Shown here: positions 10,418-27,354 of the stretch, in pieces
How the letters are laid out: each line of letters begins with the position of its first letter
Position numbering within the stretch: position 1 is the first letter of the stretch
DNA from: Pseudomonadota bacterium
Lineage (GTDB): Bacteria > Pseudomonadota > Gammaproteobacteria > GCA-001735895
Length of the DNA: 30,183 nt
Direction: 5' to 3'
Assembly: GCA_022545625.1 (NCBI GenBank)
Contig: JACZQS010000001.1
Span: 1-30,183, forward strand
Program-made: the position numbers and the translations under genes
Notes under the pieces: model-generated
The model's input: the letters and a program-made list of their open reading frames with translations, nothing else
What the model was told of the DNA's origin: nothing
Database searches by the model: none

Positions 10418-11101
10418 ATGCACAGCATCGAAAAAAATCTCGCCCAGATTCGCCTCCAGATTGAGCAGGCGGCAAGCGAATATAACCGTGACTCCCACAA
10501 TATTTCACTACTGGCAGTCAGCAAAAAAAAACTCCCGGCTGACCTACGAAACGCCTATAGTTGCGGGCAAAGAGATTTTGGTGAGAATTTCCTGCAGGAA
10601 GCGCAGGCTAAGATGCGAGATCTGTCCGACCTGGATATTATCTGGCATTTTATCGGTCCGGTGCAGTCGAACAAGACCCGGGCTCTTGCAGAGTCATTTG
10701 ACTGGGTGCACTGTGTCGACCGTCTCAAGATCGCGCGACGCCTGAGCGATCAACGACCCGAATCGATGCCCCCGCTAAATATATGCATCCAGGTGAATAT
10801 TGATCTTGAAACAAGCAAGTCTGGCGTTGCACCCGACGGTATCGTTGCTATCGCCGAAGCTATTTGCAATTTACCAAAGATAAGACTCCGCGGTTTAATG
10901 GCTATTCCGGCACAACAGTCCAGGTTTGAATTACAGCGTGAACCCTTCGCGAAAATGAGACAGGCCCTGCATGACTTGCAACAACGCGGTCTCGATTGTG
11001 ATACGCTTTCCATGGGCATGAGCCACGATATGCGGGCAGCGATTGCAGAAGGCTCGACGCTGGTTAGAATTGGTACCGCAATCTTCGGGGAACGACTTTG
11101 A
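10418..11101 (+). CDS. yggS: PLP homeostasis protein YggS
   Basis: LLAVSK, FGENFLQE, WHFIGPVQSNK, LSMGMS, VRIGTAIFG. Confidence 0.98.
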   Translation: MHSIEKNLAQIRLQIEQAASEYNRDSHNISLLAVSKKKLPADLRNAYSCGQRDFGENFLQEAQAKMRDLSDLDIIWHFIGPVQSNKTRALAESFDWVHCVDRLKIARRLSDQRPESMPPLNICIQVNIDLETSKSGVAPDGIVAIAEAICNLPKIRLRGLMAIPAQQSRFELQREPFAKMRQALHDLQQRGLDCDTLSMGMSHDMRAAIAEGSTLVRIGTAIFGERL

Positions 11102-11937
11102 ATCATCAACAGCTTTGCTTTATCGGCGGGGGCAATATGGCATTTAGCCTGATCGGCGGCATGCTTGCCAACGGCTATTCGGCGTCAAATATTACAGCCT
11201 GTGATATAGACGAAGAAAAACTTGCCGGGTTATCAACGAATTACGGCATTAACACATCAACCGATAGCCTGAAAACGGTTGGGTCAGCCGATATAGTCAT
11301 ACTTGCAGTTAAACCCCAGGTCATGCAGGTGGCTTGCGAACAGCTGGCTCCTGCCGACATTAAAACCGATTGTTTGTTTATCAGTATTGCTGCCGGTATC
11401 CGCGAATCGGCAATCAATCGCTGGCTTGGGAGCGAACGGTCTGTAGTTCGCTGCATGCCTAACACTCCCGCACTGGTGCAACTCGGCGCCACCGCTTTGT
11501 TCGCCAATCCACGGGTCAGCGCAGAACAAAAAAGTGCCGCCCAGGCGATACTCGACGCCGTTGGCATCACGGTCTGGGTAGAGCAGGAATCGGCGCTGGA
11601 CGCGGTAACTGCTATTTCTGGTAGCGGTCCCGCTTATTTTTTTTATTTTATCGAGCTATTGCAACAGTCCGGCGAAAAACTCGGTCTGCCAAAGGAAACT
11701 GCCCTGTTGCTGGCAAAGCAAACCGCCCTGGGGGCAGCCTCGATGGCACAGAACGGGGATGTCGTGCAATTACGCGCCCAGGTGACTTCCAAGGGCGGTA
11801 CCACGGAAGCGGCCATACTCTCGTTAGAGCAAAATGGTTTAGCTTCGTTGCTTGAAAAAGCGACCCAGGCTGCTCGCGACCGCTCTGTCGAACTGGCGGA
11901 TCAATCTGAATCCAGGGAACCTGTATACAAGTCATGA
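11098..11937 (+). CDS. proC: Pyrroline-5-carboxylate reductase
   Basis: FIGGGNMA, LAVKPQ, SIAAG, RCMPNTP, SGSGPAYFF, VTSKGGTT. Confidence 0.98.
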   Translation: MNHQQLCFIGGGNMAFSLIGGMLANGYSASNITACDIDEEKLAGLSTNYGINTSTDSLKTVGSADIVILAVKPQVMQVACEQLAPADIKTDCLFISIAAGIRESAINRWLGSERSVVRCMPNTPALVQLGATALFANPRVSAEQKSAAQAILDAVGITVWVEQESALDAVTAISGSGPAYFFYFIELLQQSGEKLGLPKETALLLAKQTALGAASMAQNGDVVQLRAQVTSKGGTTEAAILSLEQNGLASLLEKATQAARDRSVELADQSESREPVYKS

Positions 11938-12107
11938 ACGACCAGATTGGAGCTGGAATAGTTAATTTCCGCATCGCTAAACCTGACCCCATGGGGAAAC
12001 GATTGCACTGGGTCTTAGCCAGGTTTTGCACCCTGATTTTTATCCTGGTGACTTCAAAATTAACTCACCCAAACCTGATCAGAGATTCTATAATATTCAC
12101 TAACTAA
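11934..12107 (+). CDS. Possible 57-aa small membrane protein (not in ORF track)
   Basis: ATG overlaps proC stop (ATGA); frame open to TAA 12105-12107; one hydrophobic segment LHWVLARFCTLIFILVT; no recognisable family. Confidence 0.25.
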   Translation: MNDQIGAGIVNFRIAKPDPMGKRLHWVLARFCTLIFILVTSKLTHPNLIRDSIIFTN

Positions 12108-12122
12108 ATCGTCGGATCTGAT

Positions 12123-12728
12123 ATGGGTTCAAGCTATTTTACATCTCCGTTAACGCTGATCGTCTCTACATTGTTTGATTTGTACGTGCTGATCGTTTTG
12201 CTAAGATTTATGCTGCAATTGATGCGCGCTGACCCTCACAATTCGGTGTCCCAGTTCATCATCAAGTCGACCTCACCGCCGCTGAGATACCTGCGCCGGT
12301 TCATTCCCAGCGTATTCGGGCAGGATGCCTCCGCAATCGTATTATGCCTGGTCGTTACCTACGCCAAATTCGTCTTGTTGCGTCTGCTCGATACCGAGGT
12401 AGTGCATATCAATAATACGATTGCGTATATTGGTGGTGTTAGTTACCTGGGTTTATTGATTTATTCTATCGCCGACCTGGTATCGCTGTTTCTCAGTATT
12501 TTTCTGATTGCCATTTTAATCCAGGTAATCCTGAGTTGGATAAACCCCGGCATTTACAACCCGGTCATAGGTCTTGTCAATACCCTGGCGACACCTGCTT
12601 TGCGCCCAATACAAAAACTGATCCCTCCTGTCGGGGGAATTGATTTATCACCATTATTCGCCATGCTGATGATCATGGTAGCCAAGATGCTGATAATTTC
12701 CCCGATAATGAACCTTGCCAATCAGTGA
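12123..12728 (+). CDS. yggT: YggT family membrane protein
   Basis: Two YGGT repeats (LLRFMLQLMRADPHNSVSQF; LSWINPG..NP..PIQKLIPPVGGIDLSPL); conserved position after proC. Confidence 0.95.
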   Translation: MGSSYFTSPLTLIVSTLFDLYVLIVLLRFMLQLMRADPHNSVSQFIIKSTSPPLRYLRRFIPSVFGQDASAIVLCLVVTYAKFVLLRLLDTEVVHINNTIAYIGGVSYLGLLIYSIADLVSLFLSIFLIAILIQVILSWINPGIYNPVIGLVNTLATPALRPIQKLIPPVGGIDLSPLFAMLMIMVAKMLIISPIMNLANQ

Positions 12729-13306: not shown

Positions 13307-13360
13307 TTTTATCTAAAATTCTCTGCAGAATTGGATGTCATATCGAGTACTTTCAGTGCC

Positions 13361-14281
13361 ATGACATTAACTGAACTAAGATACATCGTAGCAGTTTCGC
13401 AAAAAAATCATTTTGGCAAGGCAGCACAGGCCTGCTTTGTTAGTCAACCCACACTCAGTATTGCAATCAAGAAACTCGAGTCAGAACTTGAAATCCGTCT
13501 GTTTGAGCGCAGCTCCAAAAACGAAATTCGAATTACTGAAATCGGCCAGCAAGTGATTAACCAGGCCTATATCGTCCTCCAGGAGGCACGTTTGTTGGGT
13601 GAGATCGCCCAACAGGGCAAGGACCCGTTGTCTGGCCCATTCAAGCTAGGCGTTATTTATACAATAGGACCCTATCTATTACCCAGTTTGATTCCGGTGC
13701 TGACCAAAAGCGTACCAAACTTGAAGCTTATTATCGAAGAAAATTTTACCGCCAACTTGTTCCAGTCGCTAAAACAGGGGACACTCGACGCTATTATTAT
13801 TTCTTATCCATTCGAGGAACCCGGAATCGAGACAGCTCCACTCTACGAAGAGCCTTTTATCGTTGCCCTGCCAGGTAATCACGCCTGGAAAGATCGGGAT
13901 ACAATTCCGACAGATGAACTGGCATCGCAGGATTTGATGTTACTCGGCGCGGGCCATTGCTTCAGAGACCAGGTAATTAGAGCCTGCCCTAACTGCATGT
14001 CGGGAAATAGCGAATTAACCCGTACCCTCGAAGGCGGGTCGCTGGAGACTATACGGCACATGGTTGCTGCCGGAACCGGAATTACGGTATTACCTCGCAC
14101 CAGTATCATGCCGGGCCAGATCAACGAAAACATGATCGATATTAAACCGTTCGAACCACCCGCTCCGAGCCGCATCGTAGCAATTGCCTGGCGTAAGCAT
14201 TACCCTCGCAAGGCGGCCATCGAAACCATTCGTGACACGATACAAACCTGCCCTTTAAGTGGCGTTGAAATTATTCATTAA
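13361..14281 (+). CDS. oxyR: Hydrogen peroxide-inducible LysR-type regulator OxyR
   Basis: LysR HTH MTLTELRY..HFGKAAQACFVSQPTLS; redox motif GHCFRDQVIRAC with E. coli C199/C208 spacing; SLETIRHMVAAG; ATG 13361. Confidence 0.93.
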   Translation: MTLTELRYIVAVSQKNHFGKAAQACFVSQPTLSIAIKKLESELEIRLFERSSKNEIRITEIGQQVINQAYIVLQEARLLGEIAQQGKDPLSGPFKLGVIYTIGPYLLPSLIPVLTKSVPNLKLIIEENFTANLFQSLKQGTLDAIIISYPFEEPGIETAPLYEEPFIVALPGNHAWKDRDTIPTDELASQDLMLLGAGHCFRDQVIRACPNCMSGNSELTRTLEGGSLETIRHMVAAGTGITVLPRTSIMPGQINENMIDIKPFEPPAPSRIVAIAWRKHYPRKAAIETIRDTIQTCPLSGVEIIH

Positions 14282-14451
14282 GGGTTCTTTAGATGAACTA
14301 GGTAATAACAGGCAAAATGAACTCCTGGTAGATAAGGGTACTGTGCCGCTACCACAGATTTTTCCAGCAGCCTCCTGGAATAATGCTACTCTGGTACAGC
14401 ACCGAACTTATGTTGTAAAATCAAAGTCCCATTTGTAGATGTCTTCTCCCT

Positions 14452-14721
14452 ATGCCCCGAGTTACCGTATACAGTACCGCAAGCTGCCCGATTTGCGTGA
14501 AAGCCAAAAACCTGCTCAACAAGTGGGATATAGATTATTCCGAGGTAGCTATCGATACCGGTGACAGCGGGTTAAAAGAATTTCGTGACGCCACGCAAGG
14601 GGCTAGAACTGTGCCACAAATTTTGATTGATGGTAAACTGATAGGTGGTTTCTCCGATTTAACCGAATTGCATATGGACGGTGATCTCGATGAACTGATG
14701 AAGCAGGATTGTGAAACCTGA
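14452..14721 (+). CDS. grxC: Glutaredoxin 3-like protein
   Basis: VTVYS..SCPIC, RTVPQILIDG..IGGFSDL. Confidence 0.92.
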   Translation: MPRVTVYSTASCPICVKAKNLLNKWDIDYSEVAIDTGDSGLKEFRDATQGARTVPQILIDGKLIGGFSDLTELHMDGDLDELMKQDCET

Positions 14722-15053
14722 TGGCAAAATCTAAAAAACATACCTTTCGCATCCAGTTCCATAATCATAATCGCATTTATGAACTCTATGCGCATCAGGT
14801 CAGCCAATCTCAAATGGCCGGATTTATCGAAGTAGGTGATATTATTTTCGGTGAACATACGAAATTGCTGATCGATCCGGCGGAAGAGAAACTCAAAAAT
14901 GAATTCGGTAATGTGAAACACATCTATATCCCACATCACTCGGTTATTCGAATCGACGAGGTCGATCATAGCGGCAAAAACAGGATTCTTGACGAAGAGG
15001 GTTCAACGGTCACACATTTTCCCGGGTCGAGCATCATCCCGCAAAAGAATTGA
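14721..15053 (+). CDS. DUF1820 family protein
   Basis: IYELYA..V.QS...GFIEV..IIFGE...LLIDPAEEKLKNEF..V...YIPHHSVIRIDEV; TGATG overlap with grxC. Confidence 0.85.
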   Translation: MAKSKKHTFRIQFHNHNRIYELYAHQVSQSQMAGFIEVGDIIFGEHTKLLIDPAEEKLKNEFGNVKHIYIPHHSVIRIDEVDHSGKNRILDEEGSTVTHFPGSSIIPQKN

Positions 15054-15066
15054 GCGTTATGCAGTA

Positions 15067-15906
15067 ATGCAGATTTCTGCTGTCATACCCAGCCACAATC
15101 GACTGCATTCCCTGATACCGGCTATCGAGTCGGTATCTAGTCAAACCAGCGCAGTTGACGAAATCATTGTAGTAGACGATGGCTCAACCGATACAACTAC
15201 CGCTGAAATTTCCCGGCGTTATCCGCAAATCAAGCTGATCCAACAACCCAACCGCGGTGTTAGCGCCGCCCGTAACGCGGGCATCAAGCTGGCTAGTTTT
15301 GACTGGATAGCACTGCTGGATTCAGACGACACCTGGCTACCTGGAAAAATCTCCTCGATTAGACAGGCTTATTCTTTACAACCCGAATACCTGTTATTCC
15401 ATTCCGATGAAATCTGGATGCGACGCGGCGTCAGGGTCAATGCGATGAAAAAACACGTCAAATCGGGCGGCTGGATATTTGAAAACTGCTTACCCCTCTG
15501 TGTTATATCACCATCGGCCGTAGTATTTCATCGCTCGATTCTGGCCGCGTCGGGTTACTTTGATGAGAACCTGCCTGCCTGCGAGGACTATGACCTATGG
15601 CTTAAAATTTGCCACCAGTACCCGGTGTGTTATATCGACAAACCACTGATCACCAAATACGGTGGACACCGGGATCAATTGTCGACCCGATACTGGGGCA
15701 TGGATAGGTTTCGTATTCGTTCCCTGTATCGGCTGCTACAACGAAATGTTCTCTGTAAACGTTATCACCAGGCAGCAGTTTCAACCCTAATAGAAAAACT
15801 CGAAATCCTGCTAAAAGGCGCGCATAAGCATGGTAATCAAAAAGTCATCGATGAGTTTGCACCGATACTGGATCAAATATGCCTTGCTGGAACCACCCGA
15901 TGCTAG
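15067..15906 (+). CDS. Soluble glycosyltransferase family 2 (GT-A fold)
   Basis: VIPSHNR, VVDDGS, NRGVSAARNAG, DSD, CEDYDLW; no TM helices; ATG 15067 preferred. Confidence 0.93.
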   Translation: MQISAVIPSHNRLHSLIPAIESVSSQTSAVDEIIVVDDGSTDTTTAEISRRYPQIKLIQQPNRGVSAARNAGIKLASFDWIALLDSDDTWLPGKISSIRQAYSLQPEYLLFHSDEIWMRRGVRVNAMKKHVKSGGWIFENCLPLCVISPSAVVFHRSILAASGYFDENLPACEDYDLWLKICHQYPVCYIDKPLITKYGGHRDQLSTRYWGMDRFRIRSLYRLLQRNVLCKRYHQAAVSTLIEKLEILLKGAHKHGNQKVIDEFAPILDQICLAGTTRC

Positions 15907-16709
15907 TCTGGGTTGTCGCGCTCCACTGCGAGGCTAAACCGGTCATCGATCACTACGGGTTAAAGAAATCGGCATCGCACCACGCCTTCGATGTTTACCA
16001 GAAGGATAATATGCACTGTATAATCAGTGGTATAGGGAAAACAGCAGTGGCTGCGGCGACCGCCTGGATCGCCGGCCTCAACCGTCACCAGGGTTCGATT
16101 GCCTGGATCAATCTCGGTACAGCAGGCTCGTCGGCACACACCCTGGGGACCATATTATCGATTTTCAAAATTTCCGATAGTGAATCAGATCGAAACTTCT
16201 ACCCGGTACCAATATTTGACTCGGCTCTGGAACCGGCTCATTGCCTTACACTCAGCCAACCCAGCACTGATTACCAATTGGATCAAATATATGACATGGA
16301 AGCGAGTGCATTTTTTGACGCGGCTACCCGATTCAGCAGTGCAGAACTGGTTCATTGCTTAAAAATAATCTCCGACACGCCCGCGCAAAAAATTGGGCAC
16401 GATAAGGCTCGTATCAGCGAACTGATCGGTCAGCATATTGTCGAACTGGCTAGCTTCGCACAATCGCTCGAAGAATTGAATGATCAGGTTGCTCGACTTG
16501 AGATCAATCAATCCGACTGGGAGAAAATTCTCGGTTGCGCCCATTTTACTCGAACCCAGCAATCGCGAGTGAGTAAATCGCTGCGTTTTTTATTTAGCCA
16601 ACAGCGCCAAACCAGGGCCTTGATCGCTGAAGTAACAAAACTGCAGTCGGCAGAATTGGTCATCGCCCATCTCGAAAATCTTTGCCACCAGCAAACACAG
16701 ACTTTGTAG
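15900..16709 (+). CDS. Nucleoside phosphorylase / MTA-SAH nucleosidase (PNP_UDP) superfamily protein with C-terminal helical extension
   Basis: VVALHCEA, SGIGK..AA, WINLGTAG, YDMEASA, LKIISD correspond to MTAN motifs; ATG 15900 overlaps the GT2 gene by 7 nt. Confidence 0.8.
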   Translation: MLVWVVALHCEAKPVIDHYGLKKSASHHAFDVYQKDNMHCIISGIGKTAVAAATAWIAGLNRHQGSIAWINLGTAGSSAHTLGTILSIFKISDSESDRNFYPVPIFDSALEPAHCLTLSQPSTDYQLDQIYDMEASAFFDAATRFSSAELVHCLKIISDTPAQKIGHDKARISELIGQHIVELASFAQSLEELNDQVARLEINQSDWEKILGCAHFTRTQQSRVSKSLRFLFSQQRQTRALIAEVTKLQSAELVIAHLENLCHQQTQTL

Positions 16710-16711
16710 CC

Positions 16712-17710
16712 ATGGTCAGTTGTGTTTATGTCGAGACCGAGATTCGCCAGCATCCACGTACCCAACGCATATTAAAACGACTTAACAACACGCCCGTTGT
16801 CGAGATCAGACACTATGGTGAAGTTTTCAATCCAAGGGCGCAAAATTTCCGTCTGCAAAAATCAAATCCCGCGTTAATTATCGCCAGAAAGCACAAGCGG
16901 CAGGTACTGAAAACACCAAAATCTTATGGCATCGGCGGCTATCATAATTATTACTTTTCGCACATGCTCAATTGCATTTACGATTGTCGGTACTGTTTTT
17001 TGCAGGGTATGTATCGATCGGCACACCAGCTAGTATTTATCAACTATGAAGATTTCGCAGCAGAAATTTCACGAGTTACCGCCCAGCATGATGGAGAGCC
17101 AGTCTGGTTTTTCTCCGGGTACGACTGTGACAGTCTGGCCAACGAACCGCTAACCAGGTTTGTGGAATACTTCGTTCCTGTATTTGCCAGGCTGGATAAC
17201 AGCTGGATGGAGCTACGTACCAAAAGTACTCAAATCAGGCAATTGTTGAAACTGGAACCCTGCCCTCGTGTCATCACCGCATTCAGCTTTACCGATCAGC
17301 ATAGCCATCGCAAACTCGAACATGGCGTGGCTTCGATAAAAAAACGCATCGATGCAATGCAGGCACTAGTAGAGTCGGGTTGGCCAGTAGGGTTGAGGCT
17401 CGATCCGATTATCTATCACCATGATTACCAGGCGGCTTTTATACAACTACTTGAACAAATTTTTGCGGTAATCGAACCAACATTATTGCACTCGGTTAGC
17501 CTCGGCGCATTTCGATTGCCGAAAAATAATTTTAAACAGGTTCACAGGCTTTTCCCTGACGAAGCCCTGTTTGCCCAAAACCTGGCCCTTAACAATGATA
17601 TCATCAGCTATCCATTGACTCTGGAACAGGAAATGATCTCGTTTTGTGAACAGCAATTGCTGCAATGGATACCAGCCGAAATTTACTTCCCCTGCAATTG
17701 GCATGACTAA
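16712..17710 (+). CDS. Spore photoproduct lyase (SplB)-like radical SAM protein
   Basis: CIYDCRYC (CxxxCxxC, 16973-16996) followed by FLQ; FIN.ED; GYDCDS; ELRTKS; LEHGVASIKKRI; GLRLDPII; starts 2 nt after the upstream stop. Confidence 0.85.
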   Translation: MVSCVYVETEIRQHPRTQRILKRLNNTPVVEIRHYGEVFNPRAQNFRLQKSNPALIIARKHKRQVLKTPKSYGIGGYHNYYFSHMLNCIYDCRYCFLQGMYRSAHQLVFINYEDFAAEISRVTAQHDGEPVWFFSGYDCDSLANEPLTRFVEYFVPVFARLDNSWMELRTKSTQIRQLLKLEPCPRVITAFSFTDQHSHRKLEHGVASIKKRIDAMQALVESGWPVGLRLDPIIYHHDYQAAFIQLLEQIFAVIEPTLLHSVSLGAFRLPKNNFKQVHRLFPDEALFAQNLALNNDIISYPLTLEQEMISFCEQQLLQWIPAEIYFPCNWHD

Positions 17711-18440
17711 TTCAGCAGTTAGCATGGCAGCACTGGTTACCGGGGCCAGCTCCGGTATAGGTCTTGCCACTACCAAATTATTATTAAAAAATAATTACCA
17801 GGTATTTGGTATCAGTCGGCGCGGGACAGTACCCGGACTCGAAAACGATCAATTTACCGGTGTCGCCATCGATCTCTCCCAACCGGATAAAATAGACGCT
17901 CAGATCGGGACTTTATTAAAACAGTGTCAAATCGATTGCTTTATCCATGCTGCCGGCAATGGCCAATTTGGATCGATCGAGCAATTTTCAGTCTCCCAAA
18001 TCGATACGGCAATCAGGCTTAATCTGACCAGTGCGCTGGTACTGAGCCGCTCGATCGTTCCCCTGTTCAGACGCAGAAACCAGGGGCGTATGATTTTTAT
18101 CGGATCGGAATCTTCTCTAAGCGCGGGAAGAAAGGGGGCTCTTTACAGCGCTGCGAAATTTGGCCTGCGCGGCTTTTGCCAGGCGCTGCGTGAAGATTGC
18201 GCCAGTGACGGCATCAATGTCAGCCTGATAAATCCCGGCCTGGTGAGAAGTCCGTTTTTTGATGGGCTAGCATTTTCGCCGGCGGCAAATTCAGAAAATG
18301 CAATTACGGTCGAGGACATAGCCGAGGTAATATTGCAGCTTTTGCAGAGCAGTCCAGATATAGTATTCGATGAAATTAATATATCGCCGAGGGTAAAGTC
18401 TTTAATATTTTCTGGGTCGCAAACCGGGAATAACAGGTAA
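17703..18440 (+). CDS. Classical short-chain dehydrogenase/reductase (probably NADP(H)-preferring)
   Basis: TGASSGIG, HAAG, IGSES, YSAAK; basic SRR after beta2; ATGACTAA 8-nt overlap with the radical SAM gene. Confidence 0.93.
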   Translation: MTNSAVSMAALVTGASSGIGLATTKLLLKNNYQVFGISRRGTVPGLENDQFTGVAIDLSQPDKIDAQIGTLLKQCQIDCFIHAAGNGQFGSIEQFSVSQIDTAIRLNLTSALVLSRSIVPLFRRRNQGRMIFIGSESSLSAGRKGALYSAAKFGLRGFCQALREDCASDGINVSLINPGLVRSPFFDGLAFSPAANSENAITVEDIAEVILQLLQSSPDIVFDEINISPRVKSLIFSGSQTGNNR

Positions 18441-18493: not shown

Positions 18494-21268
18494 TTATTGC
18501 TTCGCCTTCGCCTTCTTTTTCGCTTTCGTTTTCGTTTTAGGCTTCGGCTTCGACTTGGTTTTCTTTACTTCAGCGGTTTTTAACTCCAACGACTCTATTG
18601 GGGCGGGTTTACCGACATAGTAACCCTGTATATAGTCGATATTGGCTTCGCGCAGGCGGTCAAACATCGTATCCGACTCGACGAACTCGGCAATTACTTT
18701 CATATCGAGACTATGTCCCACCTCGGCCATTGAACGCACAAACACGAAACTGGTGTCGTTATCGATGATGTCGCGAACAAATTCACCGTCGATCTTCAGG
18801 AAATCAACCGGAAACCGTTTTAGATAACTAAACGATGACAGGCCGGTGCCAAAATCATCCAGCGAAAATTTAGCCCCTAGCCGTTTGATAGAGTTGATAA
18901 ATTCGACCGATTTTTCCACATTTTCAACAACCGAAGTTTCGGTAATCTCGAAACATAGTGCGCTTTTTTTGATGTCACTTTGTTGCAGACTTTCATGCAA
19001 GAATTTATGGAAGGTCTGCGAACCGAGGCTGCGCCCGGATAAATTGACTGAAAACATAATTTCCTGATCCTGATGATCCTCTAGCCACTGGATGATAGTT
19101 TTGACCACCCAGGTGTCAATTTTTTCAATCAGGTTATAGCGTTCGGCCGACGGTAAAAAATCGTTGGGTGGAACAATAGTGCCATCTGGTTTCCGATAGC
19201 GAATCAATACTTCATAGTGGGCGCTCTTATCACTCTCGTCTATCGAAATGATTGGTTGCACATAGAGGCAAAAACGATCCTCGTTAAAGCCCTTCATAAT
19301 ACCCGCAACCCAGTCTCTGGACACTTGCTGCGCCATCACGCCTTCGTCGTTTTCGCCGATATAGTGATACTGATTACCGCCGTTTTTCTTCGCTAAAGCA
19401 CAGGCGGTGGTAACCTTCGAGTAAAAATCAGGATATTCGTCATTCATCTGGCCAAAAGCCATCGCGCCAATACTGGCGGTAACCTGATATTGCTTGTCCT
19501 CCCATTCAAAGCCGGTTTGCTGTATTCCAATGATGATTTGCTGCATTACCTGCATCGCTTTATCGATGTCGAAAAACGGCATAATCAGACCGAATTCATC
19601 TCCGCCCAGACGGGACAATATATCCGACTTGCGCACATGCTTTTTTATTATCGAACCTACCTGTCGCAACAATACATCGCCCGCAGTATTGCCGCTGGTT
19701 TCGTTCACAATTCTGAATTGATCGACATCAAGGTATGCCAGCACATGCTGCGGGTCGGTACCATAGTCTTCAGTAACGAGGTTTTCAAACCTTTGTTCAA
19801 AAGCGCCACGATTGAGAAATCGAGTGAGTCGATCATGACTACCCTCATAACTGAGTTTGCGCCGCAGTTTGTGGTCTTCCGAAACATCCTTCAGTATGAT
19901 GACATAGCCGACATCCTCGGCTTCCATGTCGATCATTGGAGAAGCCGAAAATTCCAGTTCAACAATATTCCGCCCGGGGTCGTAAAAAAACATCGAATTC
20001 AGCACGGTTTTCCTGGTCAGTAAATGTTTAATGTCGATAATATGTGTCGCCTGCCGGTTCGAATAAAGGATTAGTGCTTCGTGTATCGATTGGCCTACCA
20101 GGTTTAATTCCTTGTCGCCGAACAACTTTTCGCCCCCTGGATTTACCAGTTTGATCACCCCTTTAGAGTCGATAACGATGACAGGATTGTTAATCGAATC
20201 CAGCGTGGTCGCGATAAAGTCTTTTTCGGATCGAAGTTTTTCTTCCATTTGCCGACGGTTTATTGTCTCGGTTTCGAGCCCTTCGACCATCTCGTTATAG
20301 GACGACACCAAATCACGCAATTCATACGGTAATTTTTTTTCACCAATCGAGGCATATTTACCAGTCAACAGTGCGCCGACAGAATTTCGTAGTGTATTCA
20401 AAGGTGAAAAAGCGCGGCTTAACAGAATTACTACCGCCATGAATACCAGGCCAGTTGCTAAGGTCGTGACGAGCATAAAATTGCCCCTGGTGCGGTCGAG
20501 CTGGCCGAGAAAAAGTTGTTGATCGAACAACCCGGTAATATTGGCGCCGAGGATCAGATCATCCCCGTACAGGTCGAAAACCGAGCGCAATTGGATGTCA
20601 CTAACGGTATCTGGCCAACTACTTGAGCGGTAGCGAACATTTTTATCACCGGTGGTAATCTTAACCGGCATATCAATATGCTCTTCGAGCGCTTTTAGAC
20701 TGTCGATGGCGTAGGCGATAATCTGCAAATAGACCCGCGAATTCAAAATATTAATCGGTGACAGAACTTCGGTGTAGAGATTATTTTCATGCGAGCACAG
20801 CACATTTTTTGAAATCTGGCGATTGAAACTGGCCTCGTTTATAGCGTTCAGAGTCAATATGCACCCGTAATAAGTCTGGCCATTATCACTGGCCTCGGCA
20901 AGAATTTCACCATCGAGATTTCGAATAATCATCGATTTTAAGCGGAATCTATCAGCGTCCCTGGCGAGGTTGTCGAAATTTTCTGTCACCCAGGTTCTCA
21001 GGCGATCTCCATTCGGGTTCTTCAGCGCCTGTTTAAAAGAGTTTTTATTTTGTAGCCTCAAGGCAAAACGGATTTGCCGTTCGTACAGGCTGTCGACTAT
21101 CTCCCGACTTTTTGTTTCCAACATTAATTTCAGGGATTCGGATTTATCTTCAACCGCCAGTTCGCGATAAACCTGGGTGCTGTAAAATGCCAGTCCGTAA
21201 GCCAGCAGCGCTAACCATAAAACTGCTATACCGATTATTAGTTTAAAACTGTAGAGACGGTCCAACAA
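18494..21268 (-). CDS. Membrane-anchored HAMP-PAS-GGDEF-EAL c-di-GMP signalling protein
   Basis: Two TM segments flanking an extracytoplasmic domain; HAMP (PLNTLR..ELRDLVSSYNEM); PAS; RKSD I-site plus GGDEF; EAL motifs EVLIR, NLS, EITE, DDFGTG, KIDGEF, AEFVE, QGYY; TTG start. Confidence 0.95.
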   Translation of the reverse strand: MLDRLYSFKLIIGIAVLWLALLAYGLAFYSTQVYRELAVEDKSESLKLMLETKSREIVDSLYERQIRFALRLQNKNSFKQALKNPNGDRLRTWVTENFDNLARDADRFRLKSMIIRNLDGEILAEASDNGQTYYGCILTLNAINEASFNRQISKNVLCSHENNLYTEVLSPINILNSRVYLQIIAYAIDSLKALEEHIDMPVKITTGDKNVRYRSSSWPDTVSDIQLRSVFDLYGDDLILGANITGLFDQQLFLGQLDRTRGNFMLVTTLATGLVFMAVVILLSRAFSPLNTLRNSVGALLTGKYASIGEKKLPYELRDLVSSYNEMVEGLETETINRRQMEEKLRSEKDFIATTLDSINNPVIVIDSKGVIKLVNPGGEKLFGDKELNLVGQSIHEALILYSNRQATHIIDIKHLLTRKTVLNSMFFYDPGRNIVELEFSASPMIDMEAEDVGYVIILKDVSEDHKLRRKLSYEGSHDRLTRFLNRGAFEQRFENLVTEDYGTDPQHVLAYLDVDQFRIVNETSGNTAGDVLLRQVGSIIKKHVRKSDILSRLGGDEFGLIMPFFDIDKAMQVMQQIIIGIQQTGFEWEDKQYQVTASIGAMAFGQMNDEYPDFYSKVTTACALAKKNGGNQYHYIGENDEGVMAQQVSRDWVAGIMKGFNEDRFCLYVQPIISIDESDKSAHYEVLIRYRKPDGTIVPPNDFLPSAERYNLIEKIDTWVVKTIIQWLEDHQDQEIMFSVNLSGRSLGSQTFHKFLHESLQQSDIKKSALCFEITETSVVENVEKSVEFINSIKRLGAKFSLDDFGTGLSSFSYLKRFPVDFLKIDGEFVRDIIDNDTSFVFVRSMAEVGHSLDMKVIAEFVESDTMFDRLREANIDYIQGYYVGKPAPIESLELKTAEVKKTKSKPKPKTKTKAKKKAKAKQ
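18501..18560. repeat. Degenerate 6-bp tandem repeat encoding the Lys-rich tail of the GGDEF-EAL protein
   Basis: ttcgcc ttcgcc ttcttt ttcgct ttcgtt ttcgtt ttaggc ttcggc ttcgac ttggtt. Confidence 0.8.
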
Positions 21269-21535: not shown

Positions 21536-22162
21536 TTATGAGCTCAAAACTCCAGTGCCACCCAGACCACAATAGCCCGAAGGATTCTTTGCCAGGTACT
21601 GCTGGTGATAGTCTTCGGCATAATAGAATTCTCCTGCCGCCTGTATTTCAGTGGTAATCATACTTAAACCCTGTGCTGACAAATTCACCTGGTAATCGTT
21701 CATGCTAGAAACCGCCTGTTGGTGCTGGCTTTCATTGCTGTAATAAATTCCAGAACGATATTGCGTACCCTGGTCGTTACCCTGACGCATACCCTGCGTC
21801 GGGTCGTGCGATTCCCAGAACACTTTTAACAGGATTTGCAGCGACACTACTGCTGGGTCGTAAACTACCAGGACTACTTCGTTGTGCCCGGTCATACCGG
21901 TGCAGACTTCCTCATAGCTGGGGTTTAATGTATGGCCGGCAGCGTAACCTACCGCGGTTGTATAAACCCCCTCCAGATTCCAGAATTTCTTTTCAGCACC
22001 CCAAAAACAACCCAGGCCGAAAATCACCTGTTCCATATTTTGCGGAAATGGCTCCACCATACTTCTGCCGTGCACATAGTGCACAGGATTCAATTGCATT
22101 TTCTCGTCACGACCGGGTAAGGCCTGGGCTGAACTGGGTATTTCCATTGATTTGCTAAACAT
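21536..22162 (-). CDS. msrA: Peptide methionine sulfoxide reductase A
   Basis: [48 protein letters not shown]. Confidence 0.99.
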
Positions 22163-22300: not shown

Positions 22301-23104
22301 TAATTCAATCCAGGTCGGTGCATGATCCGACGGTTTAGGCATCGCCCTGATATCGTAATCAACCCCGGCATCAACCACCGCAGGTCGCAGATTCTCCGAT
22401 ACCAGCAGGTGGTCGATTCGTAGCCCTCGCCTGGGTTCACGCTCGAAACCTTTGCTTCGATAATCAAACCAGCTAAATATATTGTTTTCCTGCGCATGAC
22501 ACAATCGATATCCATCGTGTAATCCGAGCGCAACCAGTGCTTCGAACCATTCTCTTTCCTCGGGCAGAAAACTGGTTTTTCCAGTTTTGAGCCATCGTTT
22601 GGCGTTGTCTTCGCCAATTCCAATATCAATATCCTGCGGTGCAATATTGTAGTCACCCATCACAACCAGTGGCGTCTTATCCATATCAAAAGAATTCAGA
22701 AAACCATTCAGCTCCTTGTAAAACAAGGTTTTAGCTGGAAATTTTAGCGGATGATCGCGGCTCTCGCCCTGCGGGAAATATCCATTAAATACATTCATCA
22801 GCTTGCCATCAACCTCGAATTCGCCACCGATAAAACGTTTTTGCGACTCATCGTTATCATTTGGTAACCCGTAACACGCGTTGCGGCAGTGCGATTTCGA
22901 TAACAATGCAACTCCGTAATGGGTTTTTTGGCCCATATAAATGACCTGGTACCCGAGCGCCTCGATCTCGGCAAGCGGAAATTCGTGATCCTGCACCTTG
23001 GTTTCCTGCAAGCCTATAAATTCCGGGGCATGTTTTTCGATCACCCGAGCCAGCTGGTGTAATCGCACCCGAATGCTATTTACATTAAACGAGACTATTT
23101 TCAT
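22289..23104 (-). CDS. xthA: Exodeoxyribonuclease III
   Basis: MKIVSFNVNSIR, LQETK, GQKTHYGVA, YFPQGESR, GDYNIAP, GLRIDHLL, PSDHAP; ATG 23104 preceded by GGGGGA. Confidence 0.98.
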   Translation of the reverse strand: MKIVSFNVNSIRVRLHQLARVIEKHAPEFIGLQETKVQDHEFPLAEIEALGYQVIYMGQKTHYGVALLSKSHCRNACYGLPNDNDESQKRFIGGEFEVDGKLMNVFNGYFPQGESRDHPLKFPAKTLFYKELNGFLNSFDMDKTPLVVMGDYNIAPQDIDIGIGEDNAKRWLKTGKTSFLPEEREWFEALVALGLHDGYRLCHAQENNIFSWFDYRSKGFEREPRRGLRIDHLLVSENLRPAVVDAGVDYDIRAMPKPSDHAPTWIELRNL

Positions 23105-24440
23105 TATTTCCCCCGGTACTTTGCGCCAGTAAATCAGCCAGTGTGCGTTCACCTAAAACAGATTCATAGCTGGATTCGATGTCGCTCTGTAGTTTCAAAA
23201 TTGACCTGTCACAAAAAATGGCGTCGCCGGAACCGGTAACCTGTGCACCGCGCAAACTGCGTAAAATATCAATCAGGCGTGTGCGACTGATCGACCGCGT
23301 GAGTAGATAACGCGGCGGATCATCCGTGGAGCGGTGCACCAGTTCACCATCTTCCAGCGCATCCAACAGGCGTCGGAGTATTTCCACCGGCACCTGCTGG
23401 TATTGCGCAAGCTTCTCGATCGAGCTTTGCTTATTTGATTGCTGTTCCTGCGAACGGCCAATATTCAGCATCAACTGTAGTGCTATCCGCTCACGCATTC
23501 GACCTGTCAGGTGGACATTCAAATTGCGCCATCTCAGGACTTCAGGGTGCTGGTGATAATAGGCGATACTGGATCCAATGAGTAATATCAGCCAGCTCAA
23601 ATAGACCCAGACAATGAACAACATTACGATCGCGAATCCCGAGTAGATCACTGTATAACTGGTAGAACCAGCGACAAATGCAGCAAACAATACACCGGTA
23701 CTTTGCCAGAGAATGCCGGCTAACAGACCACCATAAAAAGCCGAACCGAGCCTGACACTGGTATCGGGCACGGTGAAGTAAATTAGAGTAAATGCGCTTA
23801 TCACCAGCATGTAAGGCAGAAATTTCCCAAATACCCCGACCATATCGCCGAGTAACGGAAAATCGAAAACCACCGCAGGCATCGACTGGGCAGCCAGCGA
23901 CGCAGTCACAGCCAGGGCAGAGAAAAACAACGTCGGGCCGACCGACAACAAAACCAGGTATATGCTGATACGTTGCACCCAACTGCGCCTGTTTTTCAGT
24001 CGCCAGGTATGATTGAACGCCGACTCAATTTTCCTCATTAATGAAATTGCGGTGTATATCAGCATGCTCACACCCAGAATTCCAAGCAGACCAATCTTCA
24101 TGTTATCGACAAATGTGACGATCCTGGAACTGAATTCAACGCTTTGTTCTCCCAACGGCGCGAGTAAACTCGCCAGCCCCGGCTCTAATTGTTCGTGCAC
24201 ACCAATCCATCTTAATAACCACATACTGACTGCAAGCAGGGGTATGAATGCCAGGAGTGTCGTATAAACCAGGCTCATCGACCGCAGGTTCAGCAGGCCA
24301 CTGACCAGGTCGCGTCCGACCAGTGCCATTATTTGCAAAAAGTGGTGCCAATGGGATCGCCGCTCTCCAGGCTCACAGGGATTGTAAGTCCAGACATAGT
24401 CAACAATTTTTGCCTTGACTGTTGCTGCGTTTACTGGCAT
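23085..24440 (-). CDS. YihY/BrkB (virulence factor BrkB-like) membrane protein with C-terminal winged-helix domain
   Basis: SLVYTTLLAFIP, IESAFNHTW, six TM segments, WVYLSWLILLIGS; C-terminal IEKLA...VP...LRRLLDALEDGELV resembles an Rrf2-like wHTH. Confidence 0.88.
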   Translation of the reverse strand: MPVNAATVKAKIVDYVWTYNPCEPGERRSHWHHFLQIMALVGRDLVSGLLNLRSMSLVYTTLLAFIPLLAVSMWLLRWIGVHEQLEPGLASLLAPLGEQSVEFSSRIVTFVDNMKIGLLGILGVSMLIYTAISLMRKIESAFNHTWRLKNRRSWVQRISIYLVLLSVGPTLFFSALAVTASLAAQSMPAVVFDFPLLGDMVGVFGKFLPYMLVISAFTLIYFTVPDTSVRLGSAFYGGLLAGILWQSTGVLFAAFVAGSTSYTVIYSGFAIVMLFIVWVYLSWLILLIGSSIAYYHQHPEVLRWRNLNVHLTGRMRERIALQLMLNIGRSQEQQSNKQSSIEKLAQYQQVPVEILRRLLDALEDGELVHRSTDDPPRYLLTRSISRTRLIDILRSLRGAQVTGSGDAIFCDRSILKLQSDIESSYESVLGERTLADLLAQSTGGNNENSLV

Positions 24441-25254: not shown

Positions 25255-27354
25255 TCACTCGCAGGAATGCAAGGACCTTACCAGTTGGCGAAGTACCTGC
25301 TGGACCTGTTTTCGTCCAACAACTCCAGAAGATCGATCGAGCCGGTCCCAGTCTCGATTCTGCACTGCCTTTTCAATCAACCAGGGGTGTACCTCGGTAT
25401 CCGCTGGCAAGCTGGCAATTTTCTGCATGACAAATCGCTGCAAGCTACCAAAACACAGTTCGAATCCCTTGTGGCCACAGGCAAATGCATGCACTTCGGC
25501 TAAATCCATTGTCGACATCACCGGATTAAAGCGACAATAGTTTAACAGAGCAACGACATTCGCTACATCCATCGCCTGCAAGAACTGGCATAACCAGACC
25601 GGCAGGTACTCCTGGATGCGATCCTTCAATTTAATTATGTGGTCGTCTAGCTCCTGATTAAGACTCCTGAGCACTGCAACCGAATGATTACCACTCGATT
25701 TTCCCAAGCCGAAGCCGATGTGCACCAGAGAAAAATCGCAACTATGCCAAAATGCAACCGACTCAGAATCAAGCGCGAAGCTCGCACCGATATAGTCAAA
25801 ACCCTGGTCCTCCGCATGCTGTGTGGCGGTTTCGATCAACTGTCGCCCTATTCCAATTCGGCGCCAGGGCTCAAGCACTGCAATTCGCTGAACCCTCAGA
25901 CCCCTGTAGCCAGCAAAGTATTTGTCCCCCGCATGGGCGGTAATCATTTGTGCCAGCAAATGCCCCCTGGGTCGACGTGTGCCGAGATACACCTGTTCGC
26001 ATAGTTCCCTGTCCAGCCCTCCCTCGACATTTAACAGGGCCACAGCTATCAGATCACTCCCTGCTTCGGCCAAAATAACGCGAAGATGTGGATTTTCCAT
26101 CAACATGCGTAGATCCGAGGGTCGTGTACGATAGTGCGCGGAGGTCATCAGTGAATAGACTTTTTCTAGTAGCCCAGGGTTGCCTCCAAGTGCCGCTGCA
26201 TCAAGTATCCGAAGCTGACACGATTTACGTCTACCGGCATCCATAGGTATGGAAGCGGATACTGGCTTTAGTAACAGCGTGGACTCTAGCCAGGCTTCGA
26301 GACAATCGCCCGAGGCCCAGCGTACCGGCAGGGTTAATTCCAGTCGTCGCAGCTGCGCTTTTGGCAGGCGCGCGATAAAACGCAGCAGGAACCCCTGACC
26401 GGTACCTTCGTATCCGCCGGTAGTGGTAGCCATGATAATTTTTCGGTATTGCCTGCACAGTTGTTGCAGCATCGGATAAGGCAACATGGCCGCTTCATCA
26501 ATGATTAGAATAGCGGCAGCCTGTTGCTCGGCAATCAATCGGTCGGGTGCAATGAAGTCAATATCGAGTCCGGTGTTTGACTGGTTTTTCGCCTGAAGTA
26601 TCAAAATTGCAGCAGATTGTCGGGAAGGGGCCGTCACCAAAACTGACGACTGCCGACTTAATAATAAGTTGCCCAGGATAAATCCGAGGCAGGTGCTTTT
26701 TCCCCGACCACGATCGGCAGTAATCAAGGCGATGGATTGATTTTGATCACCCAACCATTCATCGACCTCTGCCATGACCGCTGATTGTTCGGCAGTCTTA
26801 CCCGAGATTAGTGGGGTTGGCCGTGCCCTGGGTAATTTCGGAATCGGGGGAAGATTTTTACCCTGTGTCAGCGTGATACCCCCGGTCGACGGGTGGCCAA
26901 GGCTGTTAAATAGTGATTCGGCAAACACCGGGTGCCTGGATTTCAGGTTATCTTGCCAGATACCATACTGATCTTTAATCGTTCCCCAATTCTGAGGGCC
27001 CGGTGACAGTAGTATCATTAAACCGCCACAACTGACCAGTCCACTCGCGATACACAGTACATCGGGGTTGAGTCCATCAAATAAATCGACCACAACGACA
27101 GGCGATTCGCTGCCCAGTAAAGTTTCAACCCTGTCGAAAGAGACTGGCTGCTCGCACAACTCACGGTTTGATATTGCCAATACATCCTTATATAACGATT
27201 GCACCGAAAGAAAAAGTTCCCTGCACCAGGCCCAATCTCCCTCAATCGATAAAACTAGCCGCTGGTGGGCACCCCGCAATTCGTCCGACAGCAGCCCCAA
27301 CCAACTTATAATTTCGTCTTTAGGGATGCTTCTTGGTGGACTGGTATTCGACAT
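25255..27354 (-). CDS. tmcA: tRNA(Met) cytidine acetyltransferase TmcA
   Basis: DUF1726-like N-terminus, helicase-like TADRGRGKST and IDEAA, TTTGGYEGTGQGF, AHYRTRPSDL, GNAT RVQRIAV...RRIGIG. Confidence 0.95.
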   Translation of the reverse strand: MSNTSPPRSIPKDEIISWLGLLSDELRGAHQRLVLSIEGDWAWCRELFLSVQSLYKDVLAISNRELCEQPVSFDRVETLLGSESPVVVVDLFDGLNPDVLCIASGLVSCGGLMILLSPGPQNWGTIKDQYGIWQDNLKSRHPVFAESLFNSLGHPSTGGITLTQGKNLPPIPKLPRARPTPLISGKTAEQSAVMAEVDEWLGDQNQSIALITADRGRGKSTCLGFILGNLLLSRQSSVLVTAPSRQSAAILILQAKNQSNTGLDIDFIAPDRLIAEQQAAAILIIDEAAMLPYPMLQQLCRQYRKIIMATTTGGYEGTGQGFLLRFIARLPKAQLRRLELTLPVRWASGDCLEAWLESTLLLKPVSASIPMDAGRRKSCQLRILDAAALGGNPGLLEKVYSLMTSAHYRTRPSDLRMLMENPHLRVILAEAGSDLIAVALLNVEGGLDRELCEQVYLGTRRPRGHLLAQMITAHAGDKYFAGYRGLRVQRIAVLEPWRRIGIGRQLIETATQHAEDQGFDYIGASFALDSESVAFWHSCDFSLVHIGFGLGKSSGNHSVAVLRSLNQELDDHIIKLKDRIQEYLPVWLCQFLQAMDVANVVALLNYCRFNPVMSTMDLAEVHAFACGHKGFELCFGSLQRFVMQKIASLPADTEVHPWLIEKAVQNRDWDRLDRSSGVVGRKQVQQVLRQLVRSLHSCE

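Follow-up and report, generated by a model that had tools for sequence, protein, structure and literature searches.

What does a cassette that joins an enzyme of the spore photoproduct lyase (SPL) fold to a nucleosidase, a glycosyltransferase and a reductase do in a bacterium that does not sporulate? This question is raised by four genes in a 30,183-nt stretch of DNA (contig JACZQS010000001.1, hereafter the window) from a gammaproteobacterial metagenome-assembled genome (MAG) of 2.46 Mb in 394 contigs. They encode, in order, a family 2 glycosyltransferase (GT2), a nucleosidase resembling 5'-methylthioadenosine/S-adenosylhomocysteine nucleosidase (MTAN), an SPL-fold radical S-adenosylmethionine (SAM) enzyme and a classical short-chain dehydrogenase/reductase (SDR). 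The initial annotation, made from the letters of the window, had described four same-strand genes joined by overlaps of 7 and 8 nt and a gap of 2 nt, 13 nt after a DUF1820 gene. The gene ends confirm this: all four genes lie on the + strand, the GT2 gene starts 13 nt beyond the end of DUF1820, and a direct reading of the sequence shows that the GT2 and nucleosidase genes overlap by 7 nt, that 2 nt separate the nucleosidase gene from the radical SAM gene, and that the latter shares 8 nt (ATGACTAA) with the SDR gene. The start codons chosen match the N-termini of homologs (alignments A1 and A2). A literature search on the gene combination and on SPL homologs found nothing relevant. We conclude that the cassette is conserved but unstudied, and that it most likely turns the ribose of SAM into a sugar-bearing side chain on a target.

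As the initial annotation had proposed, the radical SAM enzyme belongs to the SPL family by its CxxxCxxC motif and by its match to PF20903 (E 1.6e-17, 63.9 bits; gathering threshold 27 bits). It reached 75 of the 400 bits required by TIGR04070, the model for true SPL, and 63 of the 437 required by TIGR03886, the 'SPL family' model, and in NCBIfam there was no model whose cut-off it passes. Its AlphaFold model (pLDDT 95.4) aligned with SPL structures over the full length, N-terminal domain included, at template-modelling (TM) scores of 0.84-0.87 and 15-18% identity. The next fold matches were far weaker, with Rv2578c at 0.63 and pyruvate formate-lyase (PFL) activase at about 0.5.

We then mapped the family (alignment A1, 34 sequences) onto Geobacillus SPL (4RH0/4FHC), taking the roles of SPL residues from PMC3467042. 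The Fe-S cluster cysteines (C88xxxC92xxC95) are kept, as are the Tyr inside the cluster motif (Y94, SPL Y96) and the SAM-binding residues K171, S192 and R268 (SPL K174, S195 and R273). The column of the SPL hydrogen donor Cys140 (Cys140/141) is not conserved and holds Tyr in the aligned position, and a nearby Cys, that of GYDCDS, is swapped for S, T, G or N in family members. The lesion-binding R193 and E268 have become Ala (A190) and Gly (G265), the phosphate-binding K309 is hydrophobic (Ile/Val), and the hairpin tip WGR304-Y305GIG is met by a 7-residue deletion. The median isoelectric point (pI) of the family is 8.0. Since the residues that bind lesion and DNA are lost together with the hairpin tip and any conserved hydrogen-donor Cys, this residue mapping indicates that the enzyme is not a spore photoproduct lyase, as the initial annotation had also held of true SplB. 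The family is large, with 1933 cluster representatives at E<=0.001 and more than 5000 relatives in a wider search, and it is mislabelled in databases, where its members carry the names 'spore photoproduct lyase' or 'DNA photolyase'.

The assignment of the second gene product to the MTAN/purine nucleoside phosphorylase (PNP) superfamily was the weakest of the original labels. The protein matched PF01048 at E 6e-4 and 19.7 bits, under the curated cut-off of 25.1 bits, and a search of its own genome with TIGR01704 (cut-off 73.8 bits) gave no match. The label was nevertheless upheld by three lines of evidence. A profile built from 25 family members retrieved solved MTANs from the PDB at E 2.6e-8. 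The AlphaFold model (pLDDT 93) had as its top Foldseek matches only members of the PNP/uridine-phosphorylase superfamily, with MTAN, futalosine hydrolase and Chlamydia CT263 among the structural matches. Finally, E11, M133-E134, K155 and S158-D159 are invariant in the 25 sequences and align with E12, M173-E174, R193 and S196-D197 of E. coli MTAN, in which Glu12, Glu174 and Asp197 are the catalytic residues. Since the MTAN fold and these residues (E11, E134 and D159) are kept, the protein is predicted to be a competent adenine-type N-ribosyl hydrolase. It consists of a catalytic domain of about 175 aa followed by a helical C-terminal extension of about 90 aa.

The two remaining proteins were assigned more readily. 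The GT2 matched PF00535 (E 1.2e-27, 97.4 bits) and has the DxD motif of GT-A enzymes, as LDSDD. A membrane-helix prediction on all four cassette proteins found no sufficiently hydrophobic stretch, which bears out the earlier description of this GT2 as soluble. Its matches are only generic (chondroitin synthase, PglI), and donor and acceptor are not readable from them. The SDR matched PF00106 (E 8e-36, 123.8 bits) and has the cofactor motif TGASSGIG and the catalytic motif YSAAK of the classical type, as first annotated. An SRR after strand 2 suggests, from its Arg-Arg, that the enzyme uses NADP(H).

We evaluated the distribution of these genes in an even set of 300 Gammaproteobacteria genomes, which are related to one another, so that the counts are descriptive and carry no statistical test. 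At E<1e-120, an ortholog of the radical SAM enzyme was present in 36 genomes. All 36 have the nucleosidase, 34 at E<=1e-15 and two as a divergent gene that sits between the GT2 and radical SAM genes, and none of the 300 genomes has it outside the system. Of the 36, 32 have an ortholog of the GT2 (E<=1e-69), mostly directly upstream. Viewed from the GT2, an SPL-family match was obtained in 38 of the 39 genomes with an ortholog. In the exception, G162, a short nucleosidase adjoins the GT2, which is the sole GT2 ortholog in the roughly 258 genomes without an SPL-family match. The GT2 therefore appears, from this distribution, to belong to a subfamily confined to nucleosidase/SPL-like radical SAM systems.

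The same four-gene order was found in 11 other genomes of the same genus and in many other families, and because it recurs in this way the arrangement is not a chance neighbourhood. Among 80 related loci from species-representative genomes, the commonest layouts were GT2-nucleosidase-radical SAM-SDR and the same order with the SDR divergent upstream of the GT2; several further representative proteins lie on contigs too short for gene context. In 70 of 75 related loci an SDR from the same cluster was located no more than 4.5 kb away from the radical SAM gene, in 61 of them on the same strand, and typically directly downstream. The initial annotation had proposed co-occurrence or fusion across taxa as a test of the cassette, and both the orthologs in the 300 genomes and the fusions described below clearly favour a functional system. 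By these comparisons the four genes form one conserved functional system. Loci in MAGs assigned to Urechidicola (Bacteroidota), Thermoanaerobaculia and Planctomycetota (L013, L059 and L079) were considered as cross-phylum spread and set aside as probably mis-binned; they show 50-71% identity to the window gene and a gammaproteobacterial gene order.

In Methylococcales the radical SAM and SDR genes adjoin proC-yggT, which lies directly and divergently beside them (L044 4474-5876; L067). All five Methylococcales genomes tested keep the nucleosidase elsewhere (E ~1e-80), and Methylobacter tundripaludum has a GT2 ortholog 2 kb from it. In the window, yggS-proC-yggT (10418-12728) likewise closely precedes the cassette region. 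The shared neighbourhood suggests an ancient, conserved place on the chromosome, from which the GT2 and nucleosidase were later lost or moved. Methylomonas, Methylobacter tundripaludum and Methyloglobulus morosus are cultured carriers. Some loci hold additional genes: a small DSP/PTP-type phosphatase gene lies between GT2 and nucleosidase in L050 (4728-5183), L056, L060, L081 and L082, and a sodium:solute symporter gene follows the radical SAM gene in L050 (7003-8454), L056, L060, L061, L081 and L082. Phosphatase and symporter together hint at a phosphorylated or imported substrate.

Fusions and rearranged systems indicate which parts of the cassette are constant. At least 17 of the best 150 cluster representatives at 50% identity are fusions of nucleosidase and radical SAM enzyme. 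With one such fusion as the query, a search gave 553 homologs at E<=1e-20. Of the 120 that were listed, the majority have the length of a fusion, and the few entries that bear a name are from Lachnospiraceae. In three Lachnospiraceae contexts an SDR gene follows the fusion in two, and a GT2 gene was found in none. One of the 300 class genomes (G093) also encodes the fusion, as a protein of 657 aa with an SDR gene after it. A nucleosidase-sized gene, a radical SAM gene and usually an SDR are found on Chlamydiota-like contigs that also bear deubiquitinase genes of eukaryotic type, and on one distant contig the core genes lie just after rsmI. At L119 (6001-6996) the radical SAM copy matches its database protein only with TGA read as Trp, so a bacterium in which this stop codon has been reassigned also carries the system; a nucleosidase-sized gene is present there, and no SDR adjoins the radical SAM gene.

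Two further variants separate the accessory enzymes from the radical SAM gene. In G126 the GT2 ortholog has an N-terminal extension of about 220 residues that matches the nucleosidase profile (E 7e-11); the ortholog in G295 has the same length and GT2 position, and its N-terminal part failed that profile. In both genomes the SPL-family gene (373 aa) is located apart from the GT2 and comes after a gene whose product weakly matches ParB_N (E ~0.01, below the cut-off). In G126 it is followed after 3 nt by an aldo-keto reductase gene in the place of the SDR, and in G295 an unannotated gene of similar size occupies the reductase position. Because the reductase is replaceable in this way, carbonyl reduction seems, from the sequence comparison, to be required by the system. 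The ParB_N-like protein of these two genomes has 337-351 aa (L110 6541-7596 (-) and L122 5949-6962 (-)), and in G126 a ParE-toxin-like open reading frame (ORF) of 97 aa is wedged between its gene and the SPL-family gene. In G330 and G325 the SDR shares a separate operon with the GT2 and with a short nucleosidase that lacks the helical tail; the SPL-family gene, extended at its N-terminus (422-476 aa), is either a convergent neighbour of this operon or unlinked. The constant set accordingly comprises the SPL-fold radical SAM enzyme, the MTAN-like nucleosidase and a carbonyl reductase, with a dedicated GT2 added in Gammaproteobacteria. The proposed four-gene cassette stands in its nucleosidase/radical SAM/reductase part, which is the universal core; the GT2 is an add-on, seen only in systems of the gammaproteobacterial type.

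Consistent with the natural fusions, a complex of the nucleosidase and the radical SAM enzyme of the window was predicted with a score of 0.86 in each of three runs, whereas the best of three controls scored 0.37. In calibration, 51 of 78 solved complexes attained this mark, as did 2 of 108 mismatched pairs. The predicted interface involves the helical tail (193-269) and the loops 89-112 and 143-151 of the nucleosidase. The radical SAM enzyme contributes its N-terminal domain (3-54), with a family-specific FNxxxQNFxxQK motif, and residues 278-290, which adjoin the segment aligned to the DNA-probing hairpin of SPL. According to this model, the nucleosidase probably docks on the radical SAM enzyme through its helical C-terminal extension. 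That it also covers the DNA-facing side of its partner is only a suggestion of the model.

These data allow us to propose a pathway, to which we assign a probability of about 0.45, in which radical adenosylation is followed by adenine removal, aldehyde reduction and glycosylation, as with HpnH, HpnG and HpnI. The SPL-fold enzyme would cleave SAM, and the 5'-deoxyadenosyl radical would add to an unsaturated carbon of an acceptor X to give adenosyl-X. The MTAN-like nucleosidase, bound through its extra helical domain, would hydrolyse off adenine and leave a 5-substituted ribose. The NADPH-type reductase (the SDR or, in one lineage, the aldo-keto reductase) would turn the freed C1 aldehyde into a polyol chain, which the soluble GT2 would then glycosylate. 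What the analysis shows are the genes, their folds and catalytic residues, their co-occurrence, the fusions and a modelled complex; from these we infer the transfer of the adenosyl group instead of mere hydrogen abstraction, the order of steps and the nature of X, which may be a soluble metabolite or a nucleic-acid base.

Support for this pathway comes from how the genes are linked. The accessory enzymes are tied to one another at least as tightly as to the radical SAM enzyme, a pattern that fits enzymes that act in turn on one molecule. In the G126 fusion and the G330/G325 operons, the nucleosidase has its closer ties with the sugar-processing enzymes and its looser ones with the radical SAM gene. 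The adenine nucleoside on which it acts would have to derive from cleavage of SAM by the radical SAM enzyme. Aldo-keto reductases are a family typical of sugar-aldehyde reduction. The reaction order, which had been put forward in the initial annotation, thus fits the fusions, the GT2-nucleosidase-SDR operon and the reductase swap, and it remains at the level of inference. Several points weigh against it. To our knowledge, no SPL-fold enzyme adenosylates its substrate, and SPL itself abstracts a hydrogen atom. The neighbourhoods examined contained no conserved gene that would supply a substrate. The fusions and the modelled complex speak for proximity and not for an order of reactions, and the role of a bound MTAN could be no more than to lift inhibition by the product 5'-deoxyadenosine. 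Moreover, 4 of the 36 class genomes have no GT2, nor do the systems observed in groups other than Gammaproteobacteria, and the core chemistry can therefore do without glycosylation.

The main rival, less probable than the proposed pathway, is an alternative in which the radical SAM enzyme performs ordinary hydrogen-abstraction chemistry of the lyase, isomerase or dehydrogenase type, the nucleosidase only destroys 5'-deoxyadenosine, and the reductase and GT2 handle a carbonyl product. Many radical SAM enzymes are inhibited by 5'-deoxyadenosine, and none of five cassette genomes has a canonical MTAN (TIGR01704). The SPL scaffold is known to abstract hydrogen (PMC3467042), and queuosine salvage likewise sets a nucleosidase beside a radical SAM lyase (QueK/QueL; PMC11570991). 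Against this, the same five genomes have methylthioadenosine phosphorylase (MTAP), so that general disposal of methylthioadenosine and 5'-deoxyadenosine is already covered there. We considered the cassette nucleosidase as the general cellular MTAN and rejected this role, given MTAP and given that the nucleosidase was never found without the system. Mere clearance of 5'-deoxyadenosine is likewise hard to reconcile with the nucleosidase::GT2 fusion of one lineage and, in another, with a GT2-nucleosidase-SDR operon that does not include the radical SAM gene. Such clearance had been named at the outset as the simpler alternative to a biosynthetic cassette; these variants and MTAP weaken it, and it still stands as a rival.

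A separate question concerns the acceptor. It is unlikely, though compatible with either chemistry, that X is a DNA or RNA base, with the system carrying out a sugar-bearing hypermodification or the repair of a lesion other than spore photoproduct. The SPL fold is kept over its full length, including the N-terminal domain, and an SPL-like radical SAM enzyme modifies phage DNA (PMC8989533). The weak ParB_N-like protein before the SPL-like gene of G126 and G295 points the same way, as does the retention of the core trio in small genomes of host-associated appearance, in one of them beside rsmI. Set against these observations, the elements by which SPL recognises DNA are gone (R193 to Ala, E268 to Gly, the hairpin-tip deletion and the hydrophobic residue at K309), and residues 278-290, beside the hairpin-aligned segment, are part of the predicted interface with the nucleosidase. 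The cassette type of the window has no ParB-like gene, and the median pI of the family is only 8.0. Less probable still is the boldest form of the proposal, in which the SPL fold would be a third independent radical adenosylating family, after MqnE and HpnH, that with its bound nucleosidase, a dedicated ribosyl-aldehyde reductase and a GT2 builds a glycosylated polyol side chain from the ribose of SAM on a DNA or RNA base. If true, this would be a new kind of nucleic-acid hypermodification, extending from marine Gammaproteobacteria to gut Lachnospiraceae.

That the enzyme is a genuine spore-photoproduct or similar thymine-dimer lyase in a non-sporulating bacterium is highly improbable: its database names and Pfam match speak for it, and against it stand the 75 bits of the 400 set for TIGR04070, the unconserved Cys140 position, the lost lesion-binding residues and an obligatory association with nucleosidase, reductase and GT2, none of which SPL needs. 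Catalysis of the MTAN type protonates the purine N7, and 7-deazaguanine has no N7. A QueK/QueL counterpart in queuosine salvage is kept as an analogy only, the MTAN-type mechanism being ill-suited to a 7-deazapurine and an Rfam scan of the window giving zero family matches, including no preQ1 riboswitch. We also dismissed a link to hopanoids, as HpnH is present in only one of five cassette genomes.

The cassette belongs to a run of six + strand genes nearly without spacing, which begins with glutaredoxin (grx) and DUF1820 (Table 1), the stop of the former and the start of the latter sharing 1 nt at 14721. Further upstream are terB (minus strand), yggT, proC and yggS. A scan for promoters and terminators found a number of sites not above that of shuffled sequence. 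A terminator-like hairpin lies at 14341-14357, between the OxyR-like gene and grx, and given its position the six genes from grx through the SDR may share one transcript; glutaredoxin and DUF1820 are probably co-transcribed with the cassette in the window. All three cassette junctions are spanned, at 95-99% identity, by contigs from runs labelled metatranscriptomic. That these runs are RNA is a guess, and the bridging contigs are a weak hint of expression and no proof of a single transcript. The carrier sequence is present in many marine-sediment metagenomes.

Table 1. Positions of the cassette genes and of their neighbours in the window.
Feature	Positions	Strand	Details
GT2	15067-15906	+	ATG 15067, TAG 15904-15906; 279 aa; PF00535
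MTAN-like nucleosidase	15900-16709	+	ATG 15900, TAG 16707-16709; 269 aa
SPL-fold radical SAM enzyme	16712-17710	+	ATG 16712, TAA 17708-17710; 332 aa; PF20903
Classical SDR	17703-18440	+	ATG 17703, end 18440; 245 aa; PF00106
Glutaredoxin	14452-14721	+	context; PF00462
DUF1820	14721-15053	+	context; PF08850
OxyR-like LysR regulator	13331-14281		upstream of cassette
PAS-GGDEF-EAL gene	18494-21268		downstream, convergent to cassette

We ruled out DUF1820 and glutaredoxin as members of the system. DUF1820 was present in 146 of the 300 class genomes, often unlinked (this tally includes the unpublished genome G068, and publication of the count needs the permission of its depositors). It is frequently on contigs other than that of the cassette and is absent from some cassette genomes. 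Its adjacency and that of glutaredoxin to the cassette recur in some lineages in two different orders, which is not fully explained. The surroundings have a flavour of oxidative stress, with the OxyR-like LysR regulator, glutaredoxin and MsrA (13331-14721 and 21536-22162). Further downstream, a single ORF (23085-24440, -) joins a BrkB/YihY-type membrane domain (PF03631) to a C-terminal Rrf2-type regulator domain (PF02082), an unusual fusion. A homolog of the TmcA-type tRNA(Met) cytidine acetyltransferase (helicase and GNAT) is encoded 7 kb downstream (25255-27354, -), and we saw no link between it and the cassette.

New in this work are the class-wide co-distribution of the GT2, the swap of SDR and aldo-keto reductase, the residue-level loss of the DNA determinants of SPL, the MTAN/MTAP background and the controlled prediction of the complex. 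We know of no dedicated reductase in the hopanoid pathway, where the step from ribosyl aldehyde to polyol is without an assigned enzyme. If the proposed adenosylation is true, the cassette would provide a dedicated reductase for such a step. It would also represent a new and widespread use of SAM as a five-carbon sugar donor, on a scaffold so far known for DNA repair and for one phage DNA modification.

Comparison with characterised enzymes places the cassette among its relatives. Its radical SAM enzyme is like SplB (TIGR04070; PDB 4FHC/4FHD, from Geobacillus thermodenitrificans) in its full-length fold, cluster and SAM-binding residues, and unlike SplB it occurs in non-sporulating bacteria and always with partner enzymes. 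The nucleosidase resembles MtnN/Pfs in fold and catalytic residues, with Lys in the place of R193. It differs in falling below every curated cut-off, in its extra helical C-terminal domain of about 90 aa, the predicted binder of the radical SAM enzyme, and in its strict co-distribution with that enzyme. QueK and QueL of Clostridioides difficile also combine a nucleosidase and a radical SAM lyase in one operon (PMC11570991, PMC11477304), although QueK comes from an unrelated hydrolase family, IPR023186 (PMC11130926).

Closer in logic are the pathways in which adenosylating radical SAM enzymes have dedicated partners of the PNP/MTAN family, HpnG with HpnH and MqnB with MqnE (PMC13459092). The futalosine pathway (MqnE, then MqnB/MTAN) shares the succession of radical SAM adenosylation and an MTAN-family nucleosidase that we propose here. 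It differs in having no reductase or GT2; the cassette nucleosidase reached 21.5 bits against TIGR03664 (MqnB; cut-off 124.7), and MqnE is only a distant fold match of the cassette radical SAM enzyme (TM <0.5). The hopanoid route runs through HpnH, HpnG, reduction to bacteriohopanetetrol and the GT2 HpnI, the same enzyme types in the same logical order (PMC13459092). In contrast to this route, the radical SAM enzyme of the cassette has the SPL fold and is not of the HpnH family: TIGR03470 (HpnH) is not among the matches of the window protein, and its best match in the same genome, at 43 bits, lies on another contig. All four cassette proteins are predicted to be soluble. Genomes that lack HpnH carry the system, as do Lachnospiraceae, and it has a dedicated reductase. 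By analogy, the cassette would be kin to the known radical SAM and nucleosidase pathways that use SAM as a ribose donor, here built on a different scaffold.

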